Shown here one piece after another: positions 19,457 through 64,000 of a DNA stretch of 64,000 nucleotides. A model generated the notes under the pieces. The model ran no database searches and was not told where the DNA came from. It saw only the letters and a program-made list of their open reading frames with translations. Numbering within the stretch: the first letter of the stretch is position 1; each line of letters begins with the position of its first letter. Source of the DNA: an uncultured Pseudomonadota bacterium. Its GTDB lineage: Bacteria; SAR324; NAC60-12. The stretch is from contig CAJWCD010000001.1 of assembly GCA_913020725.1 (NCBI GenBank), positions 23,564 through 87,563 on the forward strand, written 5' to 3'. The translations under genes were made by a program, and so were the position numbers.

Positions 19457-23250
<3,794 letters not shown>

Positions 23251-24327
23251 TCACTCCACAATCCGTCCTTGAAAAATCTGGATTTTCTCGCCATGAACCG
23301 CTCTTCCTTGAGGAAGGGTTGTCGAAGTAATAAAGACTTGGTTCTCCATTTTTTCAAGCGTTGAAATTGTATGGTTGACTACCCTTTGATCCAACTCTGA
23401 AAACAAGTCATCCAAAATGATGACCGGATGGTTCCCCGTCTTCTTTATTAATACCGAATTTATACACAATTTTAAAGACAAATATGTGATGCGATACTCT
23501 CCTTGAGAAAAGAACTCCCGATCTCTTCTCTCACCAAGTTGCATCCGGTAGTCATCCCGGTGAGGACCAACCAGCGCATGGCCGTATTGTCGTTCCCTCC
23601 CAAGGGAACTCTCAATTTCATGAAGAACCGAATCCTCTCCTTTATCCCAGCTGCGGAGAGCAGGTTCGTACTGCAATTCAAGAGCCTCCTCTCGCCCTGT
23701 CAATTCCTGAAAAACCGAGGAGAGTGTTTCGTTGACTTGTGCAACAAATTTCTGTCGTTTTTTTGTGATGCTGACTCCATAACGAGCGAGCAGTTCGTTC
23801 CACGGTTTTATTTCCGCTTCAAGCTGCTGTTTTTTTAGTAGAATATTTTTCTGACCCAGCACCTCCTTGTAGCTCTGCAAATCGGCAAGATGGGTTGAAT
23901 CAAGCAATGAAAGGGTTCGGTTAAAAAAACGGCGGCGTTCCTGAGGTTGATTCCGGAACAAGCTCACACCTTCTGGAGCGAAGGCGAGCGAGGCAAAGGA
24001 CAACATATATTCGGAAGTCCGTTGGAGCACCTTGTGGTCCAAGAGGACGCGTCGACCTTTCTCGTTAACCGTGATGTCGATTTTGTGAAGGACGGAGTTC
24101 CGTTCAACTTCGCCTACAAGACGGGTTGCACAACTCCCGGTGTTGAGCAGGATGGTGGTTTTGCGTGTCCGGAAGGATTCGAGGTTGCAGAGATAGTGGA
24201 TCGCCTCAACCAGATTGGTTTTTCCTTGGCCGTTGCTCCCGATGATCCAATTGCAGGAGGGCGAGAACTTGGCGGAAAGTGTCTTGTAGTTTCGAAATCC
24301 GGTCAGGTTCAGCCCGCGAACTACCAT
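23251..24327 (-). CDS. recF: DNA replication and repair protein RecF
   Basis: Walker A GSNGQGKTNLVEAIHYL and SMC-like signature/Walker B (ILDDLFSELD). 358 aa. Start overlaps the dnaN stop by 7 nt. Confidence 0.88.
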   Translation of the reverse strand: MVVRGLNLTGFRNYKTLSAKFSPSCNWIIGSNGQGKTNLVEAIHYLCNLESFRTRKTTILLNTGSCATRLVGEVERNSVLHKIDITVNEKGRRVLLDHKVLQRTSEYMLSFASLAFAPEGVSLFRNQPQERRRFFNRTLSLLDSTHLADLQSYKEVLGQKNILLKKQQLEAEIKPWNELLARYGVSITKKRQKFVAQVNETLSSVFQELTGREEALELQYEPALRSWDKGEDSVLHEIESSLGRERQYGHALVGPHRDDYRMQLGERRDREFFSQGEYRITYLSLKLCINSVLIKKTGNHPVIILDDLFSELDQRVVNHTISTLEKMENQVFITSTTLPQGRAVHGEKIQIFQGRIVE

Positions 24328-25448
24328 TCAATCCGCAAAGGCATAATCACCGACAGGAAGGAACCATCGGCTTCCTCTCGGACTACACTGGGACTCATGG
24401 GGTTCTTGAACTCCATACGAACCTGAGCGGTGGACATCACTCCGAGGGTATCCAGCAGGTAACGGGAGTTGAAGCCGATCTGGAAATCCTCTCCGGAATA
24501 CTCTGCATCCAGTTCATCACTAACCTCACCATACTCGGCCTTTTCACTTTCCACCCGGAGTTTCCCGGAACTCAGCGTCAGTTTCACAGGACGGAGCTTT
24601 TCCGTGCTGATGGAGGAAACAATCTTGAGTGAACTGACTAAACGCTCCCGGTCCACTGTGGCCACCAAAGTGTTGTCCTTGGGAATGATCGGATCGCAGT
24701 TCGGGAACTTTCCCTCGATCAGCCGTGTCTTGTAGGCGAGGTCATTGCCCATAAACTGCATCACGCGATCATTGAAACTGACCTGAACGGTGTCCCCAAA
24801 CAGCTCAACCGAGCGTCTCACCTCGCTCAGTGCTTTCCGGGGAATAATCACCTCCTGCACTTGGGAAAAGCTTGTACTCTCCGTTTCGGAAAGCACTTGT
24901 GCAAGCCGATGCCCGTCCGTTGCCAACCAACGCACCTTTCCCGTCTCCGGAGTGGTCAAGTTCACCCCCATCAGGTTTCTGCGGGACTCGTTCGTCTGCG
25001 CCGCGAAAAGCGTCATGTCGATTCCGCGCTTCAGATCCTCGACCGGAATTGAGAGTTTTTCCGGAAGGTCCTCAATCTCCGTCTGTGGATACAAGCCGAC
25101 CTCCACAGTTGGAAGCCGGAGTTCCGAACTCCCGCAGGTGGCGTTCACCCAGAGTTGCTCTGTCGATTGAATGTGAACCATCTCTCCGGAAAATTCCCGA
25201 ACGATGTCATACATCTTTCTCGCATTGACGCAGATGCTCCCTTCCTCACGAACCTCAACGGAATGTCTTTCGATCAAGGACAACTCATAATCTGTTGCCG
25301 TGAATTCCGCTTGGGTCTCATCTCCTTCGGCCTCCAAGGTTTTGATTAGAAAATTGGACAGAATTGGTTTCGCCAAACTCTTGTCGATTACGGCAATCAC
25401 ATTCTGAAGAGCGTCTCGTAATACTGAAGTCTTAATTAAGATATCCAT
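24321..25448 (-). CDS. dnaN: DNA polymerase III beta sliding clamp
   Basis: 375 aa with three-domain clamp architecture. N-terminus MDILIKTSVLRDALQNVIAVIDK... and C-terminus ...MPLRIEW are typical of DnaN. Confidence 0.88.
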   Translation of the reverse strand: MDILIKTSVLRDALQNVIAVIDKSLAKPILSNFLIKTLEAEGDETQAEFTATDYELSLIERHSVEVREEGSICVNARKMYDIVREFSGEMVHIQSTEQLWVNATCGSSELRLPTVEVGLYPQTEIEDLPEKLSIPVEDLKRGIDMTLFAAQTNESRRNLMGVNLTTPETGKVRWLATDGHRLAQVLSETESTSFSQVQEVIIPRKALSEVRRSVELFGDTVQVSFNDRVMQFMGNDLAYKTRLIEGKFPNCDPIIPKDNTLVATVDRERLVSSLKIVSSISTEKLRPVKLTLSSGKLRVESEKAEYGEVSDELDAEYSGEDFQIGFNSRYLLDTLGVMSTAQVRMEFKNPMSPSVVREEADGSFLSVIMPLRIEW

Positions 25449-25667
25449 AATTCTCTTTAAATAGTAGTTAGAGGGCAGTTGATTTGTTGATAACTCTACA
25501 ATGTACTGAATTTAATAAATATTTTATCTTTATCAAAGGTCTGGAAGAAGTCGATATAGTTTACCAAACCTTTATCCAATGTAGCAAGAACTGGACGAAA
25601 CTACAGGATTTTTTTGGTTCTGTTGATAAATGTTGGAAGAGTTTTGAAGGAAGGGTTGATAACGTAG
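25449..25667. promoter_or_regulatory. AT-rich dnaN upstream region with repeated DnaA-box-like 9-mers; candidate replication origin or dnaN promoter
   Basis: GTTGATAA[C/A] occurs three times (25487-25496, 25624-25633, 25665-25674). Its reverse complement TTATCAAC(A/C) is 1-2 mismatches from the DnaA box TTATCCACA. TTTATCCAAT is at 25570-25579. A long A+T run (25506-25540) could serve as a DUE. No dnaA gene is adjacent. Confidence 0.35.
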
Positions 25668-26360
25668 CTATCTTGTTGATTTCATATATTTTATGAAAAC
25701 TCCGGAAAGAATGGCTTGGCGACTGAGACTGAGTACGCCATCCAACCAAACCTCTTGCTCAGTGATGAGGGGAGGGCAAAGACAGTGCAACTGAAATTGA
25801 AATCCATTCCAATCTGGTAGCAGAATGATGGTTGCATCCTGAAATTTCAGAGGAACTCGACAGCGGGGAAACAGGCATTTGTAGATTGATTCCTTGGCAG
25901 AAAAGATAGCCTTCAATCCCAAATCAGCTTGAGCGGAGTCAAGGCTCTTCAGCCAAGTTATCTCATCCTCGGTGCAGACGAGCCGGGCAATTCCGGGGTT
26001 GACGGATCGTTCGATCTGTTCCACATCGATCCCAATTGCTGCGATTTCAGAAACTGACGCTGTTGCTGCTGCTGCCCATTTTCCTGAGTGGGTGATGCTT
26101 CCAACGACACCATCTGGCCAGAGGGGTTCTCGAGTGTCCGGATTTCTAGGAATCGGTGAGTCGATCTGCATTTGCTGAAGTGCGAGTCGAGCGCAATGCC
26201 GTCCGCGCCGAAACTCCTTGAGCCGGAGCGGGGAACTGATGGCAGAGGTTGTGGCTTCTTCTTCAGGCAATGCCAAAGGAGGCTCAGGGATACTGGACGC
26301 GAAAAAGTGGACGCTAGAAGGAAAAGGAGAGGGAAGTTCAGAACGCGATTTGTAAGCCAA
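25668..26360 (-). CDS. 4'-phosphopantetheinyl transferase (EntD/Sfp-type)
   Basis: PPTase motifs: WPDGVVGSITHSGKWAAAA, GIDVEQIER and FSAKESIYKCL. 230 aa. Confidence 0.75.
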   Translation of the reverse strand: MAYKSRSELPSPFPSSVHFFASSIPEPPLALPEEEATTSAISSPLRLKEFRRGRHCARLALQQMQIDSPIPRNPDTREPLWPDGVVGSITHSGKWAAAATASVSEIAAIGIDVEQIERSVNPGIARLVCTEDEITWLKSLDSAQADLGLKAIFSAKESIYKCLFPRCRVPLKFQDATIILLPDWNGFQFQLHCLCPPLITEQEVWLDGVLSLSRQAILSGVFIKYMKSTR

Positions 26361-26973
26361 CCGTGGTCATGCCTCCTGAGTAGGATTTTTTCTGTTCAAC
26401 GTTGCTGGCGGTATGAGAACTGTAGTCTCTACTGCTGCCTTTCAGTCGATCAAGCTTGGGGGTGCTAAGGACGTGGTATCCCAAGTGAAACTCCAGCATG
26501 TGGTAGAAGGGCAGACCAATGTGGATGAACCCTTCAGTGACATTGCCTTTGTCGCTGAGGTCTTCTGTACTGGAATCTAAGTCTGCATTTGCGGAGGTCT
26601 TGATCGTGCCAAATCCTACACCAACTGCCATGGTGACCACAGGAAAGGGAATGTGGTAGAAGAAGTTGATCGTTTGGAGTTTGACCTTGGTTACCAGATT
26701 CAGCTTGGAAGAAGAGGGCGAGGTGACGCTGCTAGTTTCTGTATCTGTGAAAGCAAGGGCGCTCCCACCAATATTGGGAATCAAGGGAATCGGATGGGTG
26801 ATGCCAATGGATCCTCCACTCAAGCTTTTTGCAGTGACATTGGTCGCCGAGTAGGCGATTGCGACATCTGTGTTCATCCCGATAAATTGGGCATTGGCCG
26901 ACCCACCCCAAGCCACAGCGGTGAGGACGAGGACAGCAGTGGTTAACGATGCGGTGCGGTTGAGCCCGGCCAT
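26338..26973 (-). CDS. Small outer-membrane beta-barrel protein, paralog 1
   Basis: Signal peptide (...AWGGSANAQ), alternating hydrophobic beta-strand pattern, C-terminal ...TVGLQIAF ending in Phe (OMP sorting signal). Paralogous to the downstream ORF. Confidence 0.6.
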   Translation of the reverse strand: MAGLNRTASLTTAVLVLTAVAWGGSANAQFIGMNTDVAIAYSATNVTAKSLSGGSIGITHPIPLIPNIGGSALAFTDTETSSVTSPSSSKLNLVTKVKLQTINFFYHIPFPVVTMAVGVGFGTIKTSANADLDSSTEDLSDKGNVTEGFIHIGLPFYHMLEFHLGYHVLSTPKLDRLKGSSRDYSSHTASNVEQKKSYSGGMTTVGLQIAF

Positions 26974-26982
26974 GAGGATTTT

Positions 26983-27579
26983 CTAGAATCCGATCTTGAC
27001 ACCGATTCCTGTAACCGACCCACCCAGATTTGCTTTGGTGGAACTACTGCTCTCTCGTACAACGGTGTGGGAGGAGACCTTTCGGTAGCTCAGGTGAACA
27101 TCGATCAAGGGCAAAATGTTGTAGCCAATGCTTGCTAGAAACTGAGTGGGGTTGCCAGCCTTCCAGTCGGTGCCCAACTCACTGGAAGTTGAGGAAATCT
27201 TTGTCTGCCCGGTACCCAGTCCGAGTGTTATGTTAACAATGGGAATGGGCAGGTTGAAGAGGATATCGGCCATGGTTGTGGAAACCGTTGTACTGCTGCG
27301 GTCCGTGCTGCCAATTGTCTTGAGCTTGGTTTCGTAGGACTCAACTCCAAAACCGACGAGGAACGGGAGGGTGAGTCCGAGAAAGACTCCAGAGGTGCTA
27401 CCTGCCGTGATGCTGGATTCTGTTCCGGAAGAGGTGTATTTTCCAGAAAACTGGTGTGAAAGTGGGATGCCCACGCTTACAGAAATGGTATCCGCCTTTG
27501 CCGAGTTCAAGCTTCCGAGTAGCAGCCCTGCAACAAGGACTGCACTGATTTGCTGAATCTTCCTAGTCTTCATCTTCAT
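26983..27579 (-). CDS. Small outer-membrane beta-barrel protein, paralog 2
   Basis: Likely start MKMKTRKIQQISAVLVAGLLLGSLNSAKA (signal peptide). The track ORF extends to 27627. C-terminal ...GIGVKIGF. Shared blocks with paralog 1 include NLPIPIVNITLGLGTGQTKIS vs YHIPFPVVTMAVGVGFGTIKTS. Confidence 0.6.
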   Translation of the reverse strand: MKMKTRKIQQISAVLVAGLLLGSLNSAKADTISVSVGIPLSHQFSGKYTSSGTESSITAGSTSGVFLGLTLPFLVGFGVESYETKLKTIGSTDRSSTTVSTTMADILFNLPIPIVNITLGLGTGQTKISSTSSELGTDWKAGNPTQFLASIGYNILPLIDVHLSYRKVSSHTVVRESSSSTKANLGGSVTGIGVKIGF

Positions 27580-27907
27580 TGGATTCCATTTCTTTCCAGC
27601 CATCAATGACCCCCATGGGGCGTACAAACGTAAAGCGGAACGGACTGACGACCAGTGCGTCCCAAGTTGCCCCTGTGCTTCCCGAGGTCAGAGCAAAGGG
27701 AAGGACCACCAAGAAAACCCCTGACCCAATAACGGTGGCTCCGATACCAAACACACGCAAGGGAAGATCCACGACAATTGCTATTGCGTCGGGAGCCTTT
27801 CGTTCAGCGGCCTCAAGTCCGGTTGAGGAAAATGCAAGAAGCAGGCAACCAATCAAAGCGATCTTCAGTCTTTGGCAGAGGAAGTATTTCATCAAGAGCA
27901 GGTCCAT
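27563..27907 (-). CDS. Hypothetical small exported/membrane protein (114 aa)
   Basis: N-terminal hydrophobic signal-like segment (KIALIGCLLLAFSSTGLEA), a second hydrophobic stretch, and an acidic C-terminus. Lies between xth and the OMP pair on the same strand. Confidence 0.4.
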   Translation of the reverse strand: MDLLLMKYFLCQRLKIALIGCLLLAFSSTGLEAAERKAPDAIAIVVDLPLRVFGIGATVIGSGVFLVVLPFALTSGSTGATWDALVVSPFRFTFVRPMGVIDGWKEMESNEDED

Positions 27908-28935
27908 TCCAACTCGCAGATTACAGGAGCATGATCAGAAGGCTTCAAAGCCGCACGGGGGTTCATGTCAATCCAGCACGACTTGCAGGTTTGCTGAGCT
28001 GTGGAATTGGCGAGGATGTAGTCAATGCGCATACCCTCGTCTCGTTCAAACCCACGGGTTCGGTAATCCCACCAAGAGTAGTGCCCGGCTCCGGATTCGT
28101 ACTCGCGGAAAAGGTCCGTGAAGCCAAGTTGCTGAACCTGACGAAGCCATGCGTGTTCATCCGGATGGAAGCTGACCTTGCCTGCCATGACTTCCGGTGC
28201 AGCCAAGTCCCTCGTCTCCGGAGCGATGTTGAAATCGCCCATCACTAAAAGTGGCTGGTGATCAGGGAACTCCTCCAACTCCTTCCGGAACTGCTCTAGG
28301 AATTCCAGCTTGTAGCGGAACTTGTCTGATTCCACCGTTTGCCCTTGGGGAACGTAGGCGTTGATGATGCGGAGTCCTTGAACTTCCGCCGAGATCAGCC
28401 GAGCATTTTCTGGATCATACCCGTTTTGGAAGCCTTTTTGTACTTCCATGAGTGGAAAACGGGAGAGCAGGGCAACGCCATTGTAGGTTTTTTGACCGAA
28501 GGTTGCGAGAGTGTACCCGAGATTTTCGAACGCCTCGCGAGGAAAGAATGGATCCTCAGTCTTGGTTTCTTGAAGACCAACGACGTCAGGCTGGTGGGCT
28601 GCAAACCATTGGAGGAGGTTGGGAAGCCGAGAACGGATGGAGTTGACGTTCCAAGTCGCAATCCTTAGAGTTGTCTGTACGGGTTTTGCCGCAATCCGGA
28701 GTAGGTCGTCCGGAAGTAGGCAGTTGCTCTCGGAGTATTCCGAGAGGATGGGAGGTTCCAGCAACCCCCCCCAACTCCGTAACACTTCAAGCCGCTCAGA
28801 TTTCCACAGGGAAAAAAGGAGGGGGATGAGTCGCTGGGGATCGGGTTGGGAATCCCGAAGTTCGGAAAACACCACCCCGCTTTGGAGGGCGGAGTTGTGT
28901 TCCAAGGGGAGTTGGGATTCCTCGAGGTCAGGCAT
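27892..28935 (-). CDS. xth: Exodeoxyribonuclease III (Xth/APE1 family) with ~90-aa N-terminal extension
   Basis: The C-terminal ~255 aa match the EEP nuclease fold (LRIATWNVNSIRSR..., VVGLQETK, LMGDFNIAP, catalytic SDHAPV). The N-terminal extension has no recognisable domain and contains a G8 (C8 on the + strand) homopolymer. Confidence 0.8.
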   Translation of the reverse strand: MPDLEESQLPLEHNSALQSGVVFSELRDSQPDPQRLIPLLFSLWKSERLEVLRSWGGLLEPPILSEYSESNCLLPDDLLRIAAKPVQTTLRIATWNVNSIRSRLPNLLQWFAAHQPDVVGLQETKTEDPFFPREAFENLGYTLATFGQKTYNGVALLSRFPLMEVQKGFQNGYDPENARLISAEVQGLRIINAYVPQGQTVESDKFRYKLEFLEQFRKELEEFPDHQPLLVMGDFNIAPETRDLAAPEVMAGKVSFHPDEHAWLRQVQQLGFTDLFREYESGAGHYSWWDYRTRGFERDEGMRIDYILANSTAQQTCKSCWIDMNPRAALKPSDHAPVICELEWTCS

Positions 28936-32445: not shown

Positions 32446-34028
32446 ATGCATAAGGTTCTGATCACCGGGGCGATCCATCCGGTTGGGCTTGAGCGCTTGC
32501 AACAAGAGTCCGATGTCGAAGTCCACTACGCTCCGGATTTGCCCTCCGGCGAAATCCTCAAGATCATCGAACTCTTCCACTGCATCCTGACCCGTTCGGA
32601 AACGCCGATTACACGAGAGTTGCTTGACTGCGCCCCGCATCTATGGGTGGTGGCTCGTGCTGCGGTTGGGGTGGGGAACATCGACATCGCCTACGCCACA
32701 GAGCGTGGCATTCTGGTGATCAACACGCCCGCCAAAAACACGAACTCGGCTGCGGAACTCACGCTGGGGCTGGCTGATCAGCACCATGCGCAAGTTGGTG
32801 CCTGCCCACTTGCACATGGCCAGCGAGGGCTGGGATCGGCACCAATTCACCGGCACCGAACTGCTGGGCAAGATGATCGGAATTGTTGGGCTGGGGAACG
32901 TTGGGCATCGAGTCGCACGGTTTGCGCAGGCGTTTGAGATGAAGGTTCTGGCCTACGATCCCCACATTGCCGATGAGGTTTTTGAGCGGCACCAGGTCCG
33001 GAAGGTGAGTTTGGAGGAGTTGCTGACCCAAGCGGATGCCGTCAGTGTTCATGTGCCCAAGAATGCCGAGACCACCGGAATGATTGGGGCAAGCGAGCTT
33101 GCCCAGATGAGGCCCGGGAGTGGTGATCATCAACGCAGCCCGTGGCGGCGTGGTGGATGAAGCGGCTCTGCTGAAAGCTTTGCAATCGGGCCAGGTGGTG
33201 GCGGCTGGAATTGACACTTGGGAGGAGGAACCCCCGCAGGACAATCCTTTCCGGGATTTGCCGCAGGTGGTGATGACACCGCACATTGGGGCATCAACGG
33301 TTGAGGCGCAGATTCGCATTGCGGAAACTATTGCCGTTCAGGTTCCCAAGGCGTTGCGTGGGGAGGTGGTGGATTTTCCCGTGAACATGCCCGCCGTGCA
33401 AGTGCTGGACAGTCCGGTGGTGAAATCCTACACCACCCTTGCGGAGCGTTTGGGGTTGTTTGCCTCGCAGTACATCGGGTTTGCTCCGGATCGGCTGAAA
33501 ATCCACTACCGGGGAGGATTGGCAAAATACGATCCCTCGTTGCTGCGGCTTTGCTTTTTGCGAGGATTGCTGGGCAACACGCACGAGTATGTGAGCTACG
33601 TCAACGCGGACCAAGTCGCCGAGAGTTCCGGGTTGCATGTGGAAGAGGTGCAGGATCCCGGATTCACGGATTATGAAAGTGCGGTCAAGTTTCAACTGGC
33701 TGGAAAGGCGGGAGAGTTCCAGATTAGTGGGGTGGTCTTCAGCGGACCTCACCCCCGGATCACCCGGCTGAACGATTTTGTTTGTGAGATTGAACCAGAG
33801 GGAACAATTTTGGTGACAACCAATGAAGACCGCGCCGGAATGATTGGGATCATTGGCACCTGCCTTGGCGACAATCAGGTCAACATCAACCAATTTGAAT
33901 TGTCCCGGACGAGCCGTGGCGGGGAGGCGATGGCCATGATCCGGGTGGATGACGGCGTTTCGGGGCGGGTCTTGGAAAACCTCCGCACCTGCCCTGGTAT
34001 CACCTCTGTGCGTAAGGTTGTGTTGTAG
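32446..34028 (+). pseudogene. serA: D-3-phosphoglycerate dehydrogenase (SerA) interrupted by two +1 frameshifts
   Basis: Three consecutive ORFs in frames 1, 2 and 0 (32446..., 32786..., 33120...) together give a full SerA. These are the nucleotide-binding GIVGLGNVGHRVARFAQAFEMKVLAYDP, the catalytic ...NAARGGVVDE...TPHIGAST, and the C-terminal ACT domain. Removing one g near 32770-32772 (ctggggctgGctgatc) restores TLGLLISTMRKLVPA. Removing the a at 33119 (cccgggAgtggtg) restores MRPGVVIINAARGG. Confidence 0.7.
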
Positions 34029-34030
34029 CC

Positions 34031-35989
34031 ATGCGGTACCTCAAGTCCTTGATGGACCAGAACTTTCTGGAATATGCGTCCTATGTCATCAGGGACCGTG
34101 CGATTCCGGACATTGACGATGGGCTCAAACCGGTGCAGCGCCGCATTCTCCACACGATGTGGAAAATGGACGACGGCAAGTTCAGCAAGGTGGCCAACAT
34201 TGTTGGCGAGACCATGAAGTTGCACCCACATGGAGACGCCTCCATCGGCTCGGCACTGGTAGTGATCGCCAACAAGGAGTACTTCATTGAGAAGCAGGGA
34301 AATTTCGGCAACTTCTTCACCGGCGACCCCGCCTCTGCCTCGCGTTACATTGAAGCTCGCCTGACTCCGCTGGCGAAGGAGGTGCTGTTCAATCCGGAAA
34401 TCACGGCGTTTGTTGAAAACTACGACGGGCGCTCTCAGGAACCTGTTGCGCTGCCCTGCAAGATTCCTGCGGTGCTGCTGCTGGGAGCCGAGGGCATCGC
34501 CGTGGGCATGTCCACCCGCATTCTGCCGCACAACTTCAACGAGGTGCTGGACGCTCAAATCGCGCTGCTCCAAGGCGAGGATCGTCAACTCTTCCCGGAT
34601 TTCCCCACAGGCGGACTCATGGATGCCGCACTCTACGAGGACGGCAACGGCAAAGTTCGGGTGCGCTCCCAAATTGAGCAGGTGGACGACAAAACTCTGG
34701 TGGTCCGGGATCTGCCCTACGGCGTCACTACCGAATCGCTCATTCAATCTATTCAGGATGCGACCAACAAGGGAAAGCTGAAGCTGACCTCCATCAATGA
34801 TTTCACCACCGACACGGTGAACATCGAACTGCGGGCCGCTCGTGGGGTGAGTGCAGGAGAAGTGCTGAAGCGGCTTTATGCGTTCACTCAGTGCGAGGTG
34901 TCTATCTCTGTGAACCTGTTGGTGATCCACAAGAACCAGCCCGAGCTAACAAGCGTCACCGACGTGCTCAAGCACTGCACAGATTGGTTGCAGACGGTGC
35001 TGCGCCGAGAGTTGGAACTTGCTTTGGAGCAAGCTCGGTTGCAGTGGCACCGCAAGCGCCTAGAAATGTATTTCATTGAGAATCGTATTTACCAGCAGAT
35101 CGAGGAGTGCGAAAACTATGAGGAGGTGCAATCCACGGTGGCGAAGGGGTTGTTTTCGTTGCAGTCGGAACTGGATCGGTTGATCACAGATGAGGACGTT
35201 GAAGCATTGCTTTCCTTGCAAATCAAACGGCTTTCCCGCTATGACTGGGAGCGTAGCCAGAAGGAACTGGACAAGCTGCAAAAGCGGATTCGTAAACTGA
35301 AGCATAACCTTCGGACGCTCAAGGACTACACCATTCAATACTTGCAGGGATTGAAGGAAACTTACGGGGCCATGTATCCACGACAGACCTCCTTGGAGGG
35401 TTTTGATGCCATTCGGAAGGAGGAAGTGGCCGAATCCTTCAGCGTGGGCTGGGATCGAAAGTCCGGGTTCTTGGGAGCAGAGGTGAAGGGCAAGCAGACG
35501 TTCACCTGTTCGGTGCTGGATCGGCTTCTCATTGTCCACAAGGATGGTCGCTACCGCGTGGTGAGGGTTCCGGAGAAACTGTTCGTGGGCAAGGATGTTT
35601 TGACAATTGAGAAAGTAGATGGTCGCGTGGTGTTCAATCTGGTGTACTCCAGCGGTGACAGCCAAATCTGTTACGCCAAGCGGTTTCAGGTTCAGCAATT
35701 CATTCTGGATCGTGAATACCGTCTTTTCAAACGGGCAAAGGGCGCCAAGATTATCCACCTGAGTCAGGGGCCGGGTGTGATGCTGGAGGCACACTATGTG
35801 CCGACCCCGCGACTCCGGAAATCTCGGGAACTGCTGATGTTTGACACCTTGGCCATCAAGGGGATTCAGGCGCGGGGGAACCGGGTTTCCACAAAACCGG
35901 TGCAGAAAGTTCGGCAGGTGACAGAGGTGGCCGCAGAATCCTCTACACAACTCACGCTTCCGGAGCCGAAGGCAGATCATGCATCCTGA
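34031..35989 (+). CDS. Type IIA topoisomerase A-subunit-like protein (GyrA/ParC N-terminal breakage-reunion domain, C-terminal beta-pinwheel domain absent)
   Basis: 652 aa. KPVQRRILHTMW, HPHGDASIGSALVV and the active-site tyrosine context ASRYIEARL. It continues through the tower and coiled-coil regions but ends without the ~300-aa GyrA C-terminal domain. No B subunit is adjacent. Confidence 0.7.
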   Translation: MRYLKSLMDQNFLEYASYVIRDRAIPDIDDGLKPVQRRILHTMWKMDDGKFSKVANIVGETMKLHPHGDASIGSALVVIANKEYFIEKQGNFGNFFTGDPASASRYIEARLTPLAKEVLFNPEITAFVENYDGRSQEPVALPCKIPAVLLLGAEGIAVGMSTRILPHNFNEVLDAQIALLQGEDRQLFPDFPTGGLMDAALYEDGNGKVRVRSQIEQVDDKTLVVRDLPYGVTTESLIQSIQDATNKGKLKLTSINDFTTDTVNIELRAARGVSAGEVLKRLYAFTQCEVSISVNLLVIHKNQPELTSVTDVLKHCTDWLQTVLRRELELALEQARLQWHRKRLEMYFIENRIYQQIEECENYEEVQSTVAKGLFSLQSELDRLITDEDVEALLSLQIKRLSRYDWERSQKELDKLQKRIRKLKHNLRTLKDYTIQYLQGLKETYGAMYPRQTSLEGFDAIRKEEVAESFSVGWDRKSGFLGAEVKGKQTFTCSVLDRLLIVHKDGRYRVVRVPEKLFVGKDVLTIEKVDGRVVFNLVYSSGDSQICYAKRFQVQQFILDREYRLFKRAKGAKIIHLSQGPGVMLEAHYVPTPRLRKSRELLMFDTLAIKGIQARGNRVSTKPVQKVRQVTEVAAESSTQLTLPEPKADHAS

Positions 35990-55160: not shown

Positions 55161-57878
55161 ATGCAGTCGTTCAAGGTTTTTCTACTGTGCTCTGTATTTG
55201 GCCTCTTTGGAAGTAGCACTCAGATTTTCAGTCAGCAACTACCGTCTTATGTGGAAACCAGGATGGGGAAATTTCCACTGGAGATTCCAGCGTTGATGCT
55301 TCCGGAACTTCAGCCTCTGAGGTTGGCTTCGGTTCCAGATCCTGCCTTTCCCGAACTTCCGCTCTGGCATTTGGAACCGCAATTGCGACCACCCAGACCT
55401 AGTTGGCTGGATCGTGGCGGAGAAGAAGTGGAGGTTGCCTTTGAGCGGTTGGTGAGCATCCAGTCTGAAAACTATCACGAAAAACGTGAGAACCTGCATC
55501 GAGCCATCCGCCAGTTTGCAAAGGTTGTCTCGGAATACCCAGACACTCATTGGCGTGTTCTTGCGACATTCTGGGGGAGTTACGCGCAACTTCAGCTCAT
55601 TAGAGCTGAAGCCGAGGAAAAACGGAAGACTGGGGAGCCTACTAAGCGCAAATTGTGCCAGAAGAATGAGAGTTTGGTTTCCCTCCGGCAAAGGCTGAAA
55701 CAATTATTGGAGGAGGATTCTGCCAGCGAGTATCGATCACAAACTGTTGTTTTGTTGGCTTGGATGTCACTTTTTGAGCGTTGTTATGATCAGGTTCCAC
55801 AGAAAATTAGTCAATATAATCAGCTAGTAGTGCGACGATCTAAGGAGCATGAGAAACTGCTAAAATTTGGCTTCTATGCTTATTTTAAGAAGGGTGATTA
55901 CAACGAAGCCGTTGCGACCCTGCAAAAGCTCAAAACTTTGTTTCCCCAACAGCACTCATACACTGTAGCTGAAGCAAACCTGCACTACCAAACCCAGCAA
56001 AGGGAAGCGTTGGAGCAACTGGGTAGCCGCATGGCGAGTCGCCTTTTTAACCATGCGGAAACGCAGTACATCTTGGAATTGGTGCTGCGTTCTCATTTAG
56101 AAAGTCGACAGTGGGATAAAGCCCAAGAGGTCTTGAAACAGCTTGGGAGTCGAGGAGGGGTTAGTGATTTGGAATTATTAGGACACGGTGAAATCGCAAT
56201 CCAGCAAAATAACTTGGAGTTAGCGTTCCGGAGTATTCAAGGGATTCGAGATTTGTTTCTCCGGACCAAGATGTGGAAGCGGTTGGTTCATAAGACAGCA
56301 ATGCAAGCAGATTACAGATTATTGCTATCCTTCAATAGGGCATCCACTCTTCAAAAAGATGCGGAATATCATCTCATCCACGGCTATGCCTTGTACCAAG
56401 ATGGGCTTCACTTGCGAGCTTATGACGCTTTTCAGCAAGCCTTTACCTCGTCCCAAGGGGGGGAGGTATGGATTCGGGAGCAAGCACTTTTCCTGCGTTC
56501 CACAATTGAGTTGCACTCCCGTGATTTTGAGCAAGCGGAGAAGCATCTTCAGGAGTTGCTTTCAGAATTTGAGGAATCTTCTCAACGCTCCGAGTATTAT
56601 TTTTGGTTGGGAGTTCTACAACTGGAACAGCGGCAGTCACTTAGGAGCATCCATCTCAGTATGCGACAAGTGGATCCTGAGGGGGTGCGAGGGGACGGGC
56701 GTTGGTATGTGCTTGGATTTTCGAGCCATGAAATGAATGAATGGGGAAAAGCAATTGCCTTCTTTAAGCAACTACTTGAAAAGCACTCGCAGTCGTTATT
56801 TCGGGAAGAGAGTTTTTACCGATTGGCCGATGCTTATTACCAACAGGGGCAGCATTTGGAAGCGGATCAGATATTGTCAGAATATCGAGAAGAATTTCAG
56901 CAGCTTAGTAATGCGGTGCGTGTGATTGAACGCCAAGCACAGAACATGGTCAAGCTTGGGAGACTACAGAAGGCGCATGCTTTGTTACTGAAGGAAGTGC
57001 CGATTCATCCAGACTTCCGACTTGTCGCACTTCATTTGGATATCCTTAATCAGTTACAGGATGATCTCGGAATGCTGGAGCTGGCGATTCGAACTTATAA
57101 CTATGATTTCTTAAGTGACCAGCGAGGACTTATTTCTTACCATCAGGCCAATTCGCTTTTCCGGATGAAGCGTTTTGAGGAATCGCTGAGTTCCTATTTG
57201 GAGGCACAACGAGATCCCCCACCAGATCGTCTCCGATTCATTAAATATCGAATCATTCAAGTCCACCATACTCTCAATCATTATGCGCAATTCTCAGCAC
57301 TGTCTGAAGGTTTTATTCAAGAAAATAAAAATGATGGGAAGGGAAATAGAATATTGGCTTGGCTGAGTGATTATTATGAGCAGGAGGGGAAATTGAGCCA
57401 AGCAATTCCTCATTGGAAGCAGCTAGCAGTGAACTATCAAGCTACGGCTGGTCAAGTGTCGCTCCCGATGGAAAAGCGATTGGAACTCATTATTCGGATA
57501 GGTGGGTTGTACAACAAATTAGCTGACTACAAAGAAGCCGAACGTTGGGTGGACCAAGGATTCGTGCTGAATGAAAAGGTGGGAGGCGAAGGTCAACGAG
57601 GACGAACTCTAAAGCTACTCAAGGAGAAAGGGATTGCTGCTTATGGATTGGGCCAACACAAGCGTGCTCTGGCGGCCAGCTTGAAAGTTTCTTACTTAAA
57701 CCGTGCTATGCCTGAATCGGAAGCTTATCAGCTTCATCTTCGTATTGCGAATAGTTATCAACAGCTTGGGCGCGTACGCGAGGCTAAGGCCATTTATCGA
57801 AAATTGCTTCAGCGGTTACAAAATACTCAGCGGCGTGGTGTAGTTCAGCAGCGGCTCAAAACATTAGAAAATGGATAG
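55161..57878 (+). CDS. Secreted tetratricopeptide-repeat protein (~905 aa) in a lower-GC stretch
   Basis: Signal peptide MQSFKVFLLCSVFGLFGSSTQIFSQQ (the track ORF begins at 55101). Repeated TPR-like helical hairpins throughout. GC is about 42-45% by rough count, versus about 57% in flanking genes. Confidence 0.6.
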   Translation: MQSFKVFLLCSVFGLFGSSTQIFSQQLPSYVETRMGKFPLEIPALMLPELQPLRLASVPDPAFPELPLWHLEPQLRPPRPSWLDRGGEEVEVAFERLVSIQSENYHEKRENLHRAIRQFAKVVSEYPDTHWRVLATFWGSYAQLQLIRAEAEEKRKTGEPTKRKLCQKNESLVSLRQRLKQLLEEDSASEYRSQTVVLLAWMSLFERCYDQVPQKISQYNQLVVRRSKEHEKLLKFGFYAYFKKGDYNEAVATLQKLKTLFPQQHSYTVAEANLHYQTQQREALEQLGSRMASRLFNHAETQYILELVLRSHLESRQWDKAQEVLKQLGSRGGVSDLELLGHGEIAIQQNNLELAFRSIQGIRDLFLRTKMWKRLVHKTAMQADYRLLLSFNRASTLQKDAEYHLIHGYALYQDGLHLRAYDAFQQAFTSSQGGEVWIREQALFLRSTIELHSRDFEQAEKHLQELLSEFEESSQRSEYYFWLGVLQLEQRQSLRSIHLSMRQVDPEGVRGDGRWYVLGFSSHEMNEWGKAIAFFKQLLEKHSQSLFREESFYRLADAYYQQGQHLEADQILSEYREEFQQLSNAVRVIERQAQNMVKLGRLQKAHALLLKEVPIHPDFRLVALHLDILNQLQDDLGMLELAIRTYNYDFLSDQRGLISYHQANSLFRMKRFEESLSSYLEAQRDPPPDRLRFIKYRIIQVHHTLNHYAQFSALSEGFIQENKNDGKGNRILAWLSDYYEQEGKLSQAIPHWKQLAVNYQATAGQVSLPMEKRLELIIRIGGLYNKLADYKEAERWVDQGFVLNEKVGGEGQRGRTLKLLKEKGIAAYGLGQHKRALAASLKVSYLNRAMPESEAYQLHLRIANSYQQLGRVREAKAIYRKLLQRLQNTQRRGVVQQRLKTLENG

Positions 57879-58593
57879 AGTGTTTCACGTGAAACAACAG
57901 GGATTGAACAAATTTATCGTTGTGGCGATTGATGGCCCGACTGGGGTAGGCAAAAGTACACTGGCTCGGAAATTGGCAGATCGGTGGCGATTTCTCTATG
58001 TGGATACTGGAGCAATGTTCCGTTGCTTGGCCCTGAAGTGGAAGGCTCTCGAACATCCGGAAGAGGATGAGGCATTGCAAATGCTTGGAGACAATACTCA
58101 CATCGCTTTTTCAGTCGCAGGGCAAGTGATTTGTGATGACCAGGATGTGAGTACTGAAATCCGGACGGAGGAAATCTCCAAACTGGCCTCACGGATCAGC
58201 AAGTTTGGAGTGATTCGTGAAGTGATGAAACGGCAACAACGTCAACTTGTCACTGAAACCAAAAAGCAACAAGTGTATTCCGGGGCTGTGCTAGAAGGCC
58301 GTGATATTGGGACAGTGGTACTTCCGGACGCTACGATTAAGTTTTTTGTGGATGCGGATCCTAAAATCAGGGCACAGCGAAGGACAGATCAGCTACTGGA
58401 GCAGGGGCAGCAGGTGGATTATACTGAAGTCTTGAAGGCTCTTCAGGAGCGTGATCAGCAGGATCTAAATCGAGCAATTGCCCCGCTGAAGCAAGCAGAA
58501 GATGCGGTTTTGGTGGACACCACACAGTTGACTCCGGAGCAAGTGCTTGAACAGATGTCCGATCAAATCTTACATTCAGCTCATTCGGATTGA
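57871..58593 (+). CDS. cmk: Cytidylate kinase
   Basis: IVVAIDGPTGVGKSTLARKLA, and YVDTGAMFR. 240 aa. Confidence 0.88.
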   Translation: MDRVFHVKQQGLNKFIVVAIDGPTGVGKSTLARKLADRWRFLYVDTGAMFRCLALKWKALEHPEEDEALQMLGDNTHIAFSVAGQVICDDQDVSTEIRTEEISKLASRISKFGVIREVMKRQQRQLVTETKKQQVYSGAVLEGRDIGTVVLPDATIKFFVDADPKIRAQRRTDQLLEQGQQVDYTEVLKALQERDQQDLNRAIAPLKQAEDAVLVDTTQLTPEQVLEQMSDQILHSAHSD

Positions 58594-63261: not shown

Positions 63262-63395
63262 GAGTTGCGGTTGGGTTTGTTTTTAAATCAATTGGTCGAA
63301 TGGCATTCTTTTAGCTGTATCTTGCAGGACTCCAGAAGTATTTTCAACATACTATACTTGCTTGAGCAAGTCAGATAATTTCTTACGGAAAAACG

Positions 63396-64000
63396 ATGTC
63401 TAGACTTTCAGTATTTTTTCAAACCCTTAAGGTGAATTTAGAATTTAATAAACAATATCAATTATTTATATTAAATATAGGCTATCATAAACCTGCTTTG
63501 AACAGAATCGAGTTGTACAACAAGTGGTTGGACGCCTATCTTCCTTGCGTAGGCATTCAAGTTAATCCGAGATCACCTTTTGGAGAGTTGCGGGAGGTTT
63601 ATCAACTGGTAGAGCAACTGGATGGGTACTATGTACGCCAAGATGAGTTAAAGCATTTGCTACGCCATTGCCGTGTTCTCACGGCAGCTCAGCAAGAACA
63701 ACTCGTTGAAGCAATCGTAAGGTTTTTGCGCCTGATCGAGCAGGCGGAGTTGAACCCGGAGCGTCTTGTTGAGGAGCAACGACTAGAAGACTGGTGGAGA
63801 TTGTTTCCGGAGGGACAGGAGTGGGGTGTACTGGAGTGGTTGTGTTCGTTGGGATTGGAAGTTCCGTATTCGCGTGATGGGGATCGAGCTTGGAGTCGTG
63901 TTGTTCATGGACGCACCCCAGAAGCAAGCGAGCATCCACGAGAGTGGGTGCAGCATTGTCGGAAGGAAGGGGCAGAAGTTTGGGGAGATGCAATAAGCGC
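63396..64000 (+). CDS. Hypothetical protein, 5' portion (open to window end)
   Basis: Not in the track because it has no in-window stop. An ATG at 63396 after a ~130-bp AT-rich gap opens a frame with no stop to position 64000 (MSRLSVFFQTLKVNLEFNKQYQLF...LVEAIVRFLRLIEQAELNPERLVEE...). GC and codon usage rise to coding-like levels from about 63530. Confidence 0.4.
   Translation, partial: MSRLSVFFQTLKVNLEFNKQYQLFILNIGYHKPALNRIELYNKWLDAYLPCVGIQVNPRSPFGELREVYQLVEQLDGYYVRQDELKHLLRHCRVLTAAQQEQLVEAIVRFLRLIEQAELNPERLVEEQRLEDWWRLFPEGQEWGVLEWLCSLGLEVPYSRDGDRAWSRVVHGRTPEASEHPREWVQHCRKEGAEVWGDAIS

Follow-up and report, generated by a model that had tools for sequence, protein, structure and literature searches.

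A dnaN-linked spacer as the probable chromosomal replication origin of a marine SAR324 bacterium

An AT-rich spacer lies between dnaN and a phosphopantetheinyl transferase gene

We analyzed the intergenic spacer directly upstream of dnaN in a 64,000-nt stretch (the window) of contig CAJWCD010000001.1 and describe it here as the predicted chromosomal origin of replication (oriC) of an uncultured marine SAR324 bacterium. Identical copies of the DnaN protein of the window are encoded on numerous contigs from marine metagenomes, TARA among them, and in the metagenome-assembled genome (MAG) GCA_029936015.1, and its homologues at 60–70% identity carry the names SAR324 cluster bacterium or Candidatus Lambdaproteobacteria. 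To our knowledge, the marine phylum SAR324 is abundant worldwide and has no member in culture; no description of a SAR324 replication origin was found in the searchable literature. The spacer and the genes around it are as follows.

19457–20803, minus strand: der (Pfam)
20800–23199, minus strand: gyrB (Pfam)
23251–24327, minus strand: recF (Pfam)
24321–25448, minus strand: dnaN (beta clamp), first gene of dnaN-recF-gyrB-der; Pfam DNA_pol3_beta, all three domains
25449–25667, no strand assigned: dnaN-upstream intergenic spacer, predicted oriC; 219 bp, 32% GC, change point of strand composition at 25450, conserved box, promoter-like and trio blocks
25668–26360, minus strand: 4′-phosphopantetheinyl transferase (PPTase) gene, in the usual place of dnaA; Pfam 4PPT_N and ACPS

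Two hallmarks of a bacterial oriC, as used by Ori-Finder and DoriC (PMC2650636), are evident from this arrangement: the spacer is intergenic, being bounded by the dnaN start and the PPTase stop, and it adjoins dnaN, whose transcription heads away from the predicted origin and is co-directional with the leftward fork. Its GC content of 32% compares with ~53% for the window, and the presumed functional elements reach slightly past it (~25432–25682). An earlier reading made from the sequence alone (the sequence-only reading) had pointed to the only strongly AT-rich intergenic block in the first half of the window, upstream of dnaN-recF-gyrB, as an oriC or DnaA-box cluster without an adjacent dnaA. 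The compositional part of that proposal holds, with 25432–25631 ranking second in AT-richness among 200-bp stretches of the window and being the sole such intergenic block in the first half. So do the minus-strand orientation of both flanking genes, dnaN and PPTase, and the replacement of dnaA by the PPTase gene, as tblastn detected dnaA nowhere in the window. A second strongly AT-rich spacer (63262–63480) was rejected as an origin; it is a divergent motA promoter region in which neither a box cluster nor a trio module is present. The window gave no match in Rfam and tRNA scans, so no RNA gene accounts for the spacer upstream of dnaN.

Strand composition inverts at the spacer

Leading strands are usually G-rich, and a change from negative to positive skew along the plus strand therefore has the polarity of an origin. 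The cumulative G−C curve declines steadily as far as 25335, its minimum, and climbs from there to the window end; the best two-segment change point, 25450, coincides with the spacer edge (skew of −0.050 to the left and +0.079 to the right). The negative-to-positive inversion, a further oriC hallmark, thus extends over the 25- and 38-kb flanks that the window provides. The idea of an origin here had hinged on where the skew turns and, within the window, both the minimum and the change point fall at the spacer. This inversion is not a side effect of gene orientation, because the switch is retained when only minus-strand genes are compared (mean skew of −0.060 on the left [n = 13] and +0.059 on the right [n = 20]; Mann-Whitney p = 1.4e-4), and third codon positions behave in the same way (p = 1.6e-3). 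To the left, 13 of 14 genes, including dnaN-recF-gyrB, are co-oriented with the leftward fork. A terminus reading of the switch was ruled out by its polarity and by the orientation of dnaN-recF-gyrB away from the site.

For comparison, a scan of species-representative genomes provided 44 dnaN loci (L011–L054; 46–93% DnaN identity), assigned to the SAR324 clade by similarity (only some of the records are labelled SAR324), plus loci from other phyla. The host genome itself is present as MAG contigs of 97 kb or less, and 21 kb of the related complete chromosome OZ242383.1 were included. Of the 27 relatives whose loci extend 4 kb or more in both directions, 24 change from negative to positive skew where dnaN starts, and 11 have their skew minimum no more than 200 bp from the dnaN ATG. 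The skew difference in the window, 0.13, is as sharp as in relatives whose spacers are rich in DnaA boxes.

The spacer is enriched in a variant DnaA box

The three copies of GTTGATAA(C/A) listed in the sequence-only reading are present at 25486, 25622, and 25655 and make up three of the five copies in the window. Specifically, the window-wide count of five compares with 0.6 expected and was reached in 0 of 100 shuffles, and for the spacer alone we estimate from its 32% GC that ~0.01 copies would be expected versus the three found. Whether this 9-mer might be just as frequent elsewhere can thus be answered: it is locally enriched and, as described below, conserved in relatives. The exact form TTATCAACA occurs three times in the window, twice in the spacer. 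Relative to the E. coli box TTATCCACA, the three boxes of the spacer have 1, 1, and 2 mismatches. Multiple DnaA boxes, another hallmark of oriC, are therefore represented by two copies of TTATCAACA, one of TTATCAACC, and weaker sites, a modest count in the window alone. The elements of the region are given below in the direction away from dnaN; L012 (84% DnaN identity) and L011 (93%) are the relatives aligned with the window for the conservation footprint.

25432–25458, no strand assigned: predicted unwinding element beyond the trios, covering the dnaN ribosome-binding region, start codon (25446–25448) and first codons; placed by the model of the basal unwinding system (BUS)
25459–25467, plus strand: DnaA-trios, 5′-AAA TAG TAG-3′, that is 3′-GAT GAT AAA-5′ (minus strand CTACTATTT); the only box-spacer-trio match in the window
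25473–25476, no strand assigned: G/C cluster (GCCC on the minus strand) between box pair and trios, as read from the sequence; relatives have a G/C-rich spacer in the same place
25477–25485, minus strand: weak second box AAATCAACT, as read from the sequence, overlapping the strong box by 1 nt; 4 mismatches to TTATCCACA
25485–25493, minus strand: strong predicted DnaA box TTATCAACA, the distal member of the trio-proximal pair; exact copy, conserved in L011, L012, and the clade; 1 mismatch to TTATCCACA
25500–25536, minus strand: A+T run with a promoter-like TTGATA-16-TAAATT (25536–25509) toward dnaN, from a promoter scan
25571–25580, plus strand: TTTATCCAAT, put forward earlier as a fourth box; present in the window and not conserved in L012 or L011
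25577–25588, minus strand: conserved block CTTGCTACATTG, resembling an extended −10 (TGnTACATT); invariant in the window, L011, and L012
25621–25629, minus strand: DnaA box TTATCAACA followed by an A-tract; exact copy, with TTTATCAACAGAA invariant in the window, L011, and L012
25654–25662, minus strand: DnaA box TTATCAACC; 2 mismatches to TTATCCACA, its position kept as ATATCAACA in L012 and ATACCAACA in L011
25674–25682, minus strand: box-like AAATCAACA in the last PPTase codons; conserved in L012 and AAATCAGCA in L011, coding constraint and box function being inseparable here

A box-pair and DnaA-trio module precedes the dnaN start codon

The published BUS rules describe a box with up to 2 mismatches and an optional tandem box with up to 4, a box-to-trio spacer of 0–16 bp (most often 13), and three or more trios that have A in the middle and the consensus 3′-GAT-5′ (Pelliciari 2021, PMC8287927). 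The window has a box pair within these mismatch limits at 25485–25493 and 25477–25485. A stringent scan (box with up to 2 mismatches, spacer no longer than 17 nt, and three or more [C/T]T[A/T] triplets) of both strands (128 kb) returned a single match, 25459–25493 on the minus strand, which reads TTATCAACA, 17 nt, and CTACTATTT; composition-preserving shuffles gave 0.3. In 20 of 40 relatives, the same scan matched the homologous site, which lies 9–16 nt ahead of the ATG; the spacers there measure 13–14 nt from the distal box and 2–3 nt from the proximal box. Alignment of the last ~85 nt before the dnaN ATG in 25 loci revealed a common order of box, 2–3 nt, box, G/C cluster, CTACTACTA... repeats, AT-rich DNA, and ATG, and CTACTA... 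is kept 9–16 nt before the dnaN ATG in ~25 divergent loci. As a positive control, the same module was recovered in dnaA-dnaN spacers of other phyla, including L056–58 (delta proteobacterium label), L060–65 (Elusimicrobia label), L069, L072, L074, and L084.

In C. difficile, the trio sequence 5′-CACCTACTACTATTACTACTATGA-3′ lies upstream of dnaN, and a CACC cluster is the analogue of the G/C cluster (Richardson 2016/2019; PMC8287927; PMC7561715). The SAR324 trio repeats have nearly the same sequence, and we checked the strand and side of the window trios against it. The orientation of trios and box also matches that of R1 in E. coli oriC.

Next to the trios, the DNA is predicted to melt easily. 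Nearest-neighbour stability calculations place 25432–25471 and 25497–25536 among the three least stable 40-mers of the window, and the first 36 nt of dnaN have 31% GC versus 52% for the whole gene. The second of these 40-mers, the least stable of the region, corresponds to the A+T run, where A+T content reaches 88% over 34 bp (25500–25533). From the orientation of the module, opening would be expected at 25432–25471 rather than at the A+T run (25497–25536). In the sequence-only reading, TTTATCCAAT and a ~35-bp A+T run had been assigned as a box and an unwinding element; both are indeed present (at 25571 and 25500–25533), but TTTATCCAAT and most of the run are not conserved, and unwinding is predicted across the proximal box pair from them, at 25432–25458. 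Compared with its homologues, the window module is slightly eroded, with a weak second box, a 17-nt spacer, and only three trios.

Boxes and trios are conserved while their surroundings vary

In the alignment of the window with L012 and L011, both upstream boxes, the A-tract, CTTGCTACATTG, the −10-like TTTATTAAATTCAG, the box pair, and the trios proved invariant or nearly so (AAATCAAC is invariant at the weak second box). The spacer centre, in comparison, is variable and includes TTTATCCAAT and most of the A+T run, of which only the −10-like TTTATTAAATTCAG part is conserved and the rest contains strain single-nucleotide polymorphisms (SNPs). Consistent with this pattern, ten strains with 99.1–99.96% nucleotide identity to the window over the aligned locus have spacer SNPs only in the variable centre. 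The invariance of boxes and trios across relatives at 84–93% identity while neighbouring bases vary points to purifying selection on these elements. Conversely, TTTATCCAAT and the A+T run were ruled out as core origin elements, as both are in the non-conserved centre, and TTTATCCAAT probably has no box function.

Across the wider clade, an AT-rich spacer of 220–550 bp precedes dnaN in every locus, and its commonest 7-mers converge, clade by clade, on TCAACA or TCGACA cores. The density of TT[ATG]TC[AG]ACA (up to 1 mismatch) is 20–48 per kb in most of the ~40 SAR324-clade spacers versus 1–4 per kb in the rest of the locus, and one clade has about a dozen TTTTCGACA copies in its spacer. The lineage of the window, L011, and L012 is the poorest, with 2–3 good boxes and 13.7 per kb versus 1.16 per kb. 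This poverty raises the question of whether the spacer could be a relic, an ancestral dnaA-oriC-dnaN origin that has become inactive in this lineage and is losing its boxes; the lengthened box-to-trio spacer, the reduction to three trios, the low number of boxes (3, against 6–17 in relatives), and the departure of dnaA from the locus would all fit such decay. We consider a relic quite unlikely, as the skew switch (difference of 0.13) is no less sharp than in box-rich relatives, and the boxes and trios that remain are invariant across the 84–93% relatives, as expected under purifying selection.

Several relatives differ in how boxes and trios are arranged. In L013–L016 and L018, a ~45-bp module, AATCATTTCAAGCCAGTCGACAGGTTTTCGACA(A/G)GTTTTCGACAG, is directly repeated at both spacer ends; trios follow the dnaN-proximal copy only, and the boxes are TTTTCGACA rather than TTATCAACA. 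In the core-clade loci L039, L043, L044, L037, and L042, which include OZ242383.1, CTACTACTA trios are kept and TTATCAACA-type boxes are almost absent; the repeated TGTAAACA, TGCAAACA, and TTTACAAACA in these loci suggest a further diverged box. Outside the clade, the Omnitrophota dnaA-dnaN spacers L072 and L084 contain boxes with A at position 6 (TTTTCAACAAATTCAACA and TTATCAACAGTTTGAACA) beside trio-like repeats, and this box variant is therefore not unique to SAR324.

The gene on the far side of the spacer is less constant. It encodes PPTase in the window and most marine lineages, and elsewhere a racemase-like protein, MeaB, Sua5/YrdC, or KAS III; because the spacer features persist while this gene differs, the spacer travels with dnaN. 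The same turnover implies that breakpoints have arisen repeatedly at the upstream edge of the spacer. The skew switch could accordingly sit at a rearrangement breakpoint or at the boundary of an island, with no relation to replication, or the spacer could be AT-rich by chance. We give very little credence to this explanation, given that the skew polarity is the same in 24 of 27 loci whatever the upstream gene, that the 9-mer counts (3 versus ~0.01 in the spacer and 5 versus 0.6 window-wide) far exceed expectation, and that the motifs are conserved down to about 46–50% DnaN identity.

Promoter-like elements accompany the module

Besides the TTGATA-16-TAAATT element in the A+T run, the conserved CTTGCTACATTG block is possibly a second dnaN promoter, as its sequence would suggest, and other clades carry homologous TTGCTAnATT or TGATAGATT blocks in its place. 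With one promoter-like site found by a generic sigma-70 scan and one expected by chance, we treat the promoter assignments as tentative. The predicted origin probably includes a promoter for dnaN.

DnaA boxes commonly regulate replication genes, and the spacer might accordingly be a DnaA-regulated promoter or leader of dnaN-recF-gyrB and nothing else, with the true origin elsewhere, for example beside dnaA. The promoter-like elements directed toward dnaN, the conserved −10-like blocks, the placement of box pair and trios within what would be the dnaN leader, and the fact that dnaA was not located are all compatible with this possibility, and the sequence-only reading had judged a pure dnaN promoter to fit as well as an origin. 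That parity no longer stands. A promoter yields no strand-independent skew inversion, yet the window and 24 of 27 relatives have one, and the oriented combination of box pair, G/C cluster, trios, and AT-rich DNA is an origin-unwinding module that occurs once in 128 kb (both strands). A parS site, described below, also lies nearby. Taken as the whole explanation, a promoter or leader is improbable in our view.

dnaA is absent from the locus in the core clade

Deep relatives (46–51% DnaN identity) and all loci retrieved from other phyla have dnaA directly upstream of the spacer. In comparison, tblastn with four deep-clade DnaA proteins revealed none in the window (25- and 38-kb flanks) or in L001–L045, and there is no dnaA within 10 kb in any core-clade locus. 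Thus, the hallmarks of an origin are found at dnaN and unlinked from dnaA, as in the cyanobacterial and Sorangium type. Loss of dnaA-dnaN linkage would then be a derived trait of the core clade, a direction of change that we infer from the distribution of gene orders.

A profile built from six deep-clade DnaAs retrieved deep-clade proteins and then Chloroflexi and Gemmatimonadota-type ones, and none attributable to the heavily sampled core marine SAR324 clade; a profile of domain I only returned three fragments. The candidates P0234, P0212, and P0223 were dismissed as the DnaA of this lineage, as they proved to come from other lineages in which dnaA and dnaN are still linked. Either the core-clade DnaA was missed by our candidate filter or it is unusually divergent. 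Among the proteins recovered, P0181, P0206, P0208, P0212, P0214, P0215, P0227, and P0234 (loci L091–L093) form a DnaA group of ~443–450 aa from an unrelated lineage with the order dnaA-dnaN-gyrB. These proteins have DHATVIY where most DnaAs have DHTTVLH or DHSTVLH, and the changed residues presumably correspond to T435 and H439, which contact bases in E. coli DnaA.

The spacer as a probable DnaA-dependent origin

Taken together, skew, conserved boxes, and trio module support an oriC without an adjacent dnaA, as first proposed from the sequence. We estimate the probability that the spacer is the DnaA-dependent chromosomal oriC of this marine SAR324 bacterium, working by the ordinary box/trio mechanism, at roughly 85%. 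It is very probably an origin of an ordinary type that stayed with dnaN while dnaA moved elsewhere.

According to this model, DnaA would bind the variant 9-mers TTATCAAC(A/C) at 25654, 25621, and 25485, along with weaker sites. The tandem pair at 25477–25493, facing dnaN, would load a DnaA-ATP oligomer onto the trios (25459–25467, plus strand), and the oligomer would stretch and open the AT-rich DNA at ~25432–25458, over the dnaN ribosome-binding site and start codon. Helicase could then be loaded at the opened DNA, with forks departing in both directions. One or two promoter-like elements in the spacer probably drive dnaN-recF-gyrB through the box pair, in which case DnaA occupancy would modulate dnaN expression. 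In evolutionary terms, deep relatives would have kept the ancestral dnaA-oriC-dnaN order, whereas the core clade would have separated dnaA, leaving the unwinding module with dnaN.

A number of observations weigh against an origin at this site. The skew covers 25 and 38 kb of flank, not the replicon, and genes on the right show no co-orientation bias (13 plus versus 20 minus), the five nearest to the predicted origin being head-on. The lineage has only 3 boxes (up to 1 mismatch to TT[ATG]TC[AG]ACA) versus 6–17 in relatives, and position 6 of the predicted box, where the base is normally conserved, does not match TTATCCACA. Under a loose definition (up to 1 mismatch to TT[ATG]TC[AG]ACA), 3–4 hits also occur in six other 250-bp windows; box clustering in the window alone is thus only moderately exceptional, and it is the comparative data that make it convincing. 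Within the module, 17 nt separate the strong box from the first trio, which exceeds the limit of the published program by 1 nt (the weak box is 9 nt away), and the three trios are the minimum under the BUS rules, against 4–6 in relatives. Finally, neither the dnaA of the lineage nor any box cluster adjoining it was found by tblastn or profile searches.

A more far-reaching version of the origin model can be formulated, namely that the core clade has an origin permanently uncoupled from dnaA, with boxes changed at position 6 (TTATCAACA here, TTTTCGACA in a second lineage, and perhaps TTGTAAACA in a third), a co-evolving and maybe unusually divergent DnaA DNA-binding domain or protein, and origin opening coupled to beta-clamp expression. 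If true, the altered boxes would imply co-evolution of the DnaA DNA-binding domain, and opening and beta-clamp expression would be physically coupled because the predicted unwinding element extends over the ribosome-binding site and start codon of dnaN. We regard this version as rather doubtful.

Comparison with known origins

The box-pair/trio module has been reported as broadly conserved (PMC8287927; PMC7561715). Like the BUS of B. subtilis (incC boxes 6/7 plus DnaA-trios) and oriC2 of C. difficile, the SAR324 module has tandem boxes facing a short G/C cluster (Richardson 2016/2019; PMC8287927; PMC7561715), followed by trios with a 3′-GAT-5′ complement (CTACTA...) and AT-rich DNA immediately upstream of dnaN; the spacer of 13–14 nt in most SAR324 relatives also agrees with the commonest published value. 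Unlike in these two species, dnaA is not upstream of the SAR324 spacer, so that there is no second, dnaA-flanking cluster and the origin is not bipartite. The SAR324 boxes further differ in having position 6 occupied by A or G rather than C, the window has a 17-nt spacer and only three trios, and the AT-rich region extends into the dnaN start codon, 9–16 nt past the trios.

Origins linked to dnaN and unlinked from dnaA are known from cyanobacteria (experimentally mapped in Synechococcus elongatus; also Microcystis and Prochlorococcus), and one is predicted, with its own box variant, in Sorangium cellulosum (PMC7198777, PMC2650636). The SAR324 locus resembles them in having a spacer upstream of dnaN at a GC-skew shift, dnaA elsewhere, and a lineage-specific box. 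It differs in phylum and in the box itself (TTATCAACA or TTTTCGACA, versus TTTTCCACA in cyanobacteria and TTATCCCCC in Sorangium); in addition, the loss of dnaA linkage can be placed inside the SAR324 phylum because deep relatives keep dnaA-dnaN.

Compared with E. coli oriC, in the gidA-mioC spacer, the SAR324 origin likewise combines a box cluster with an adjacent AT-rich unwinding element away from dnaA, and the box nearest the unwinding element is oriented like R1 of E. coli. However, the SAR324 spacer has no GATC (versus 350 in the window), which argues against Dam/SeqA-type control, no 13-mer repeat family was found in it, and it adjoins dnaN. Thus, it is not an origin of the E. coli type.

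What is specific here is the phylum, the boxes with A or G at position 6, a loss of dnaA linkage that is visible within the phylum, and a predicted unwinding element over a translation start. No new mechanism is revealed, and the predicted mode of opening is unsurprising. A confident origin call would nevertheless serve as an anchor for coverage-based growth-rate estimates (peak-to-trough ratio) from ocean metagenomes, and it aids in orienting or checking MAG and long-read assemblies and in replichore-level analyses. The clade also provides a phylum-level example of a box-pair/DnaA-trio module that stays with dnaN when dnaA leaves, and its natural variation at position 6 of the DnaA box can be used to study initiator-DNA co-evolution.

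A parS site and other features of the window

One further element of the window relates to chromosome segregation.

57881–57896, no strand assigned: perfect canonical parS palindrome TGTTTCACGTGAAACA; zero mismatches, 32 kb from the predicted origin, at the 5′ end of cmk

parS sites are origin-proximal, and the distance of 32 kb fits such a location. No parA or parB was found among the ~40 window ORFs scanned, which cover most of the window. Up to 160 bp upstream of parS, the 3′ end of a TPR gene (57725–57802) contains three plus-strand DnaA-box-like 9-mers: TTATCAGCT at 57725, an exact TTATCAACA at 57755, and TTATCGAAA at 57794.

An exact look-up of the 1846-aa protein, intended to extend the contig past the left end of the window, returned no record. 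To the right of the spacer, a five-gene block directly upstream of dnaN (25668–28935) is conserved in most core SAR324 lineages (L011, L012, and L020–L045). It encodes an Exo_endo_phos protein (347 aa), proteins of 114, 214, and 211 aa, and PPTase; three of the five have no Pfam match, and all five genes are head-on to the predicted rightward fork. Some relatives have 1–3 paralogous copies of the 214-aa protein. Farther along, a serA-like D-3-phosphoglycerate dehydrogenase gene (32446–34028) is present as two ORFs (163 and 302 aa) with a 182-bp gap. On near-identical contigs, this gene is called as a single 413-aa product or as other fragments, and the split could reflect frameshift polymorphism or assembly errors. 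It is followed by a gene for a GyrA/ParC-like protein (34031–35989) of 652 aa, which matches the DNA_topoisoIV domain alone, lacks most of the C-terminal domain, and has the same length of 652 aa on all related contigs.

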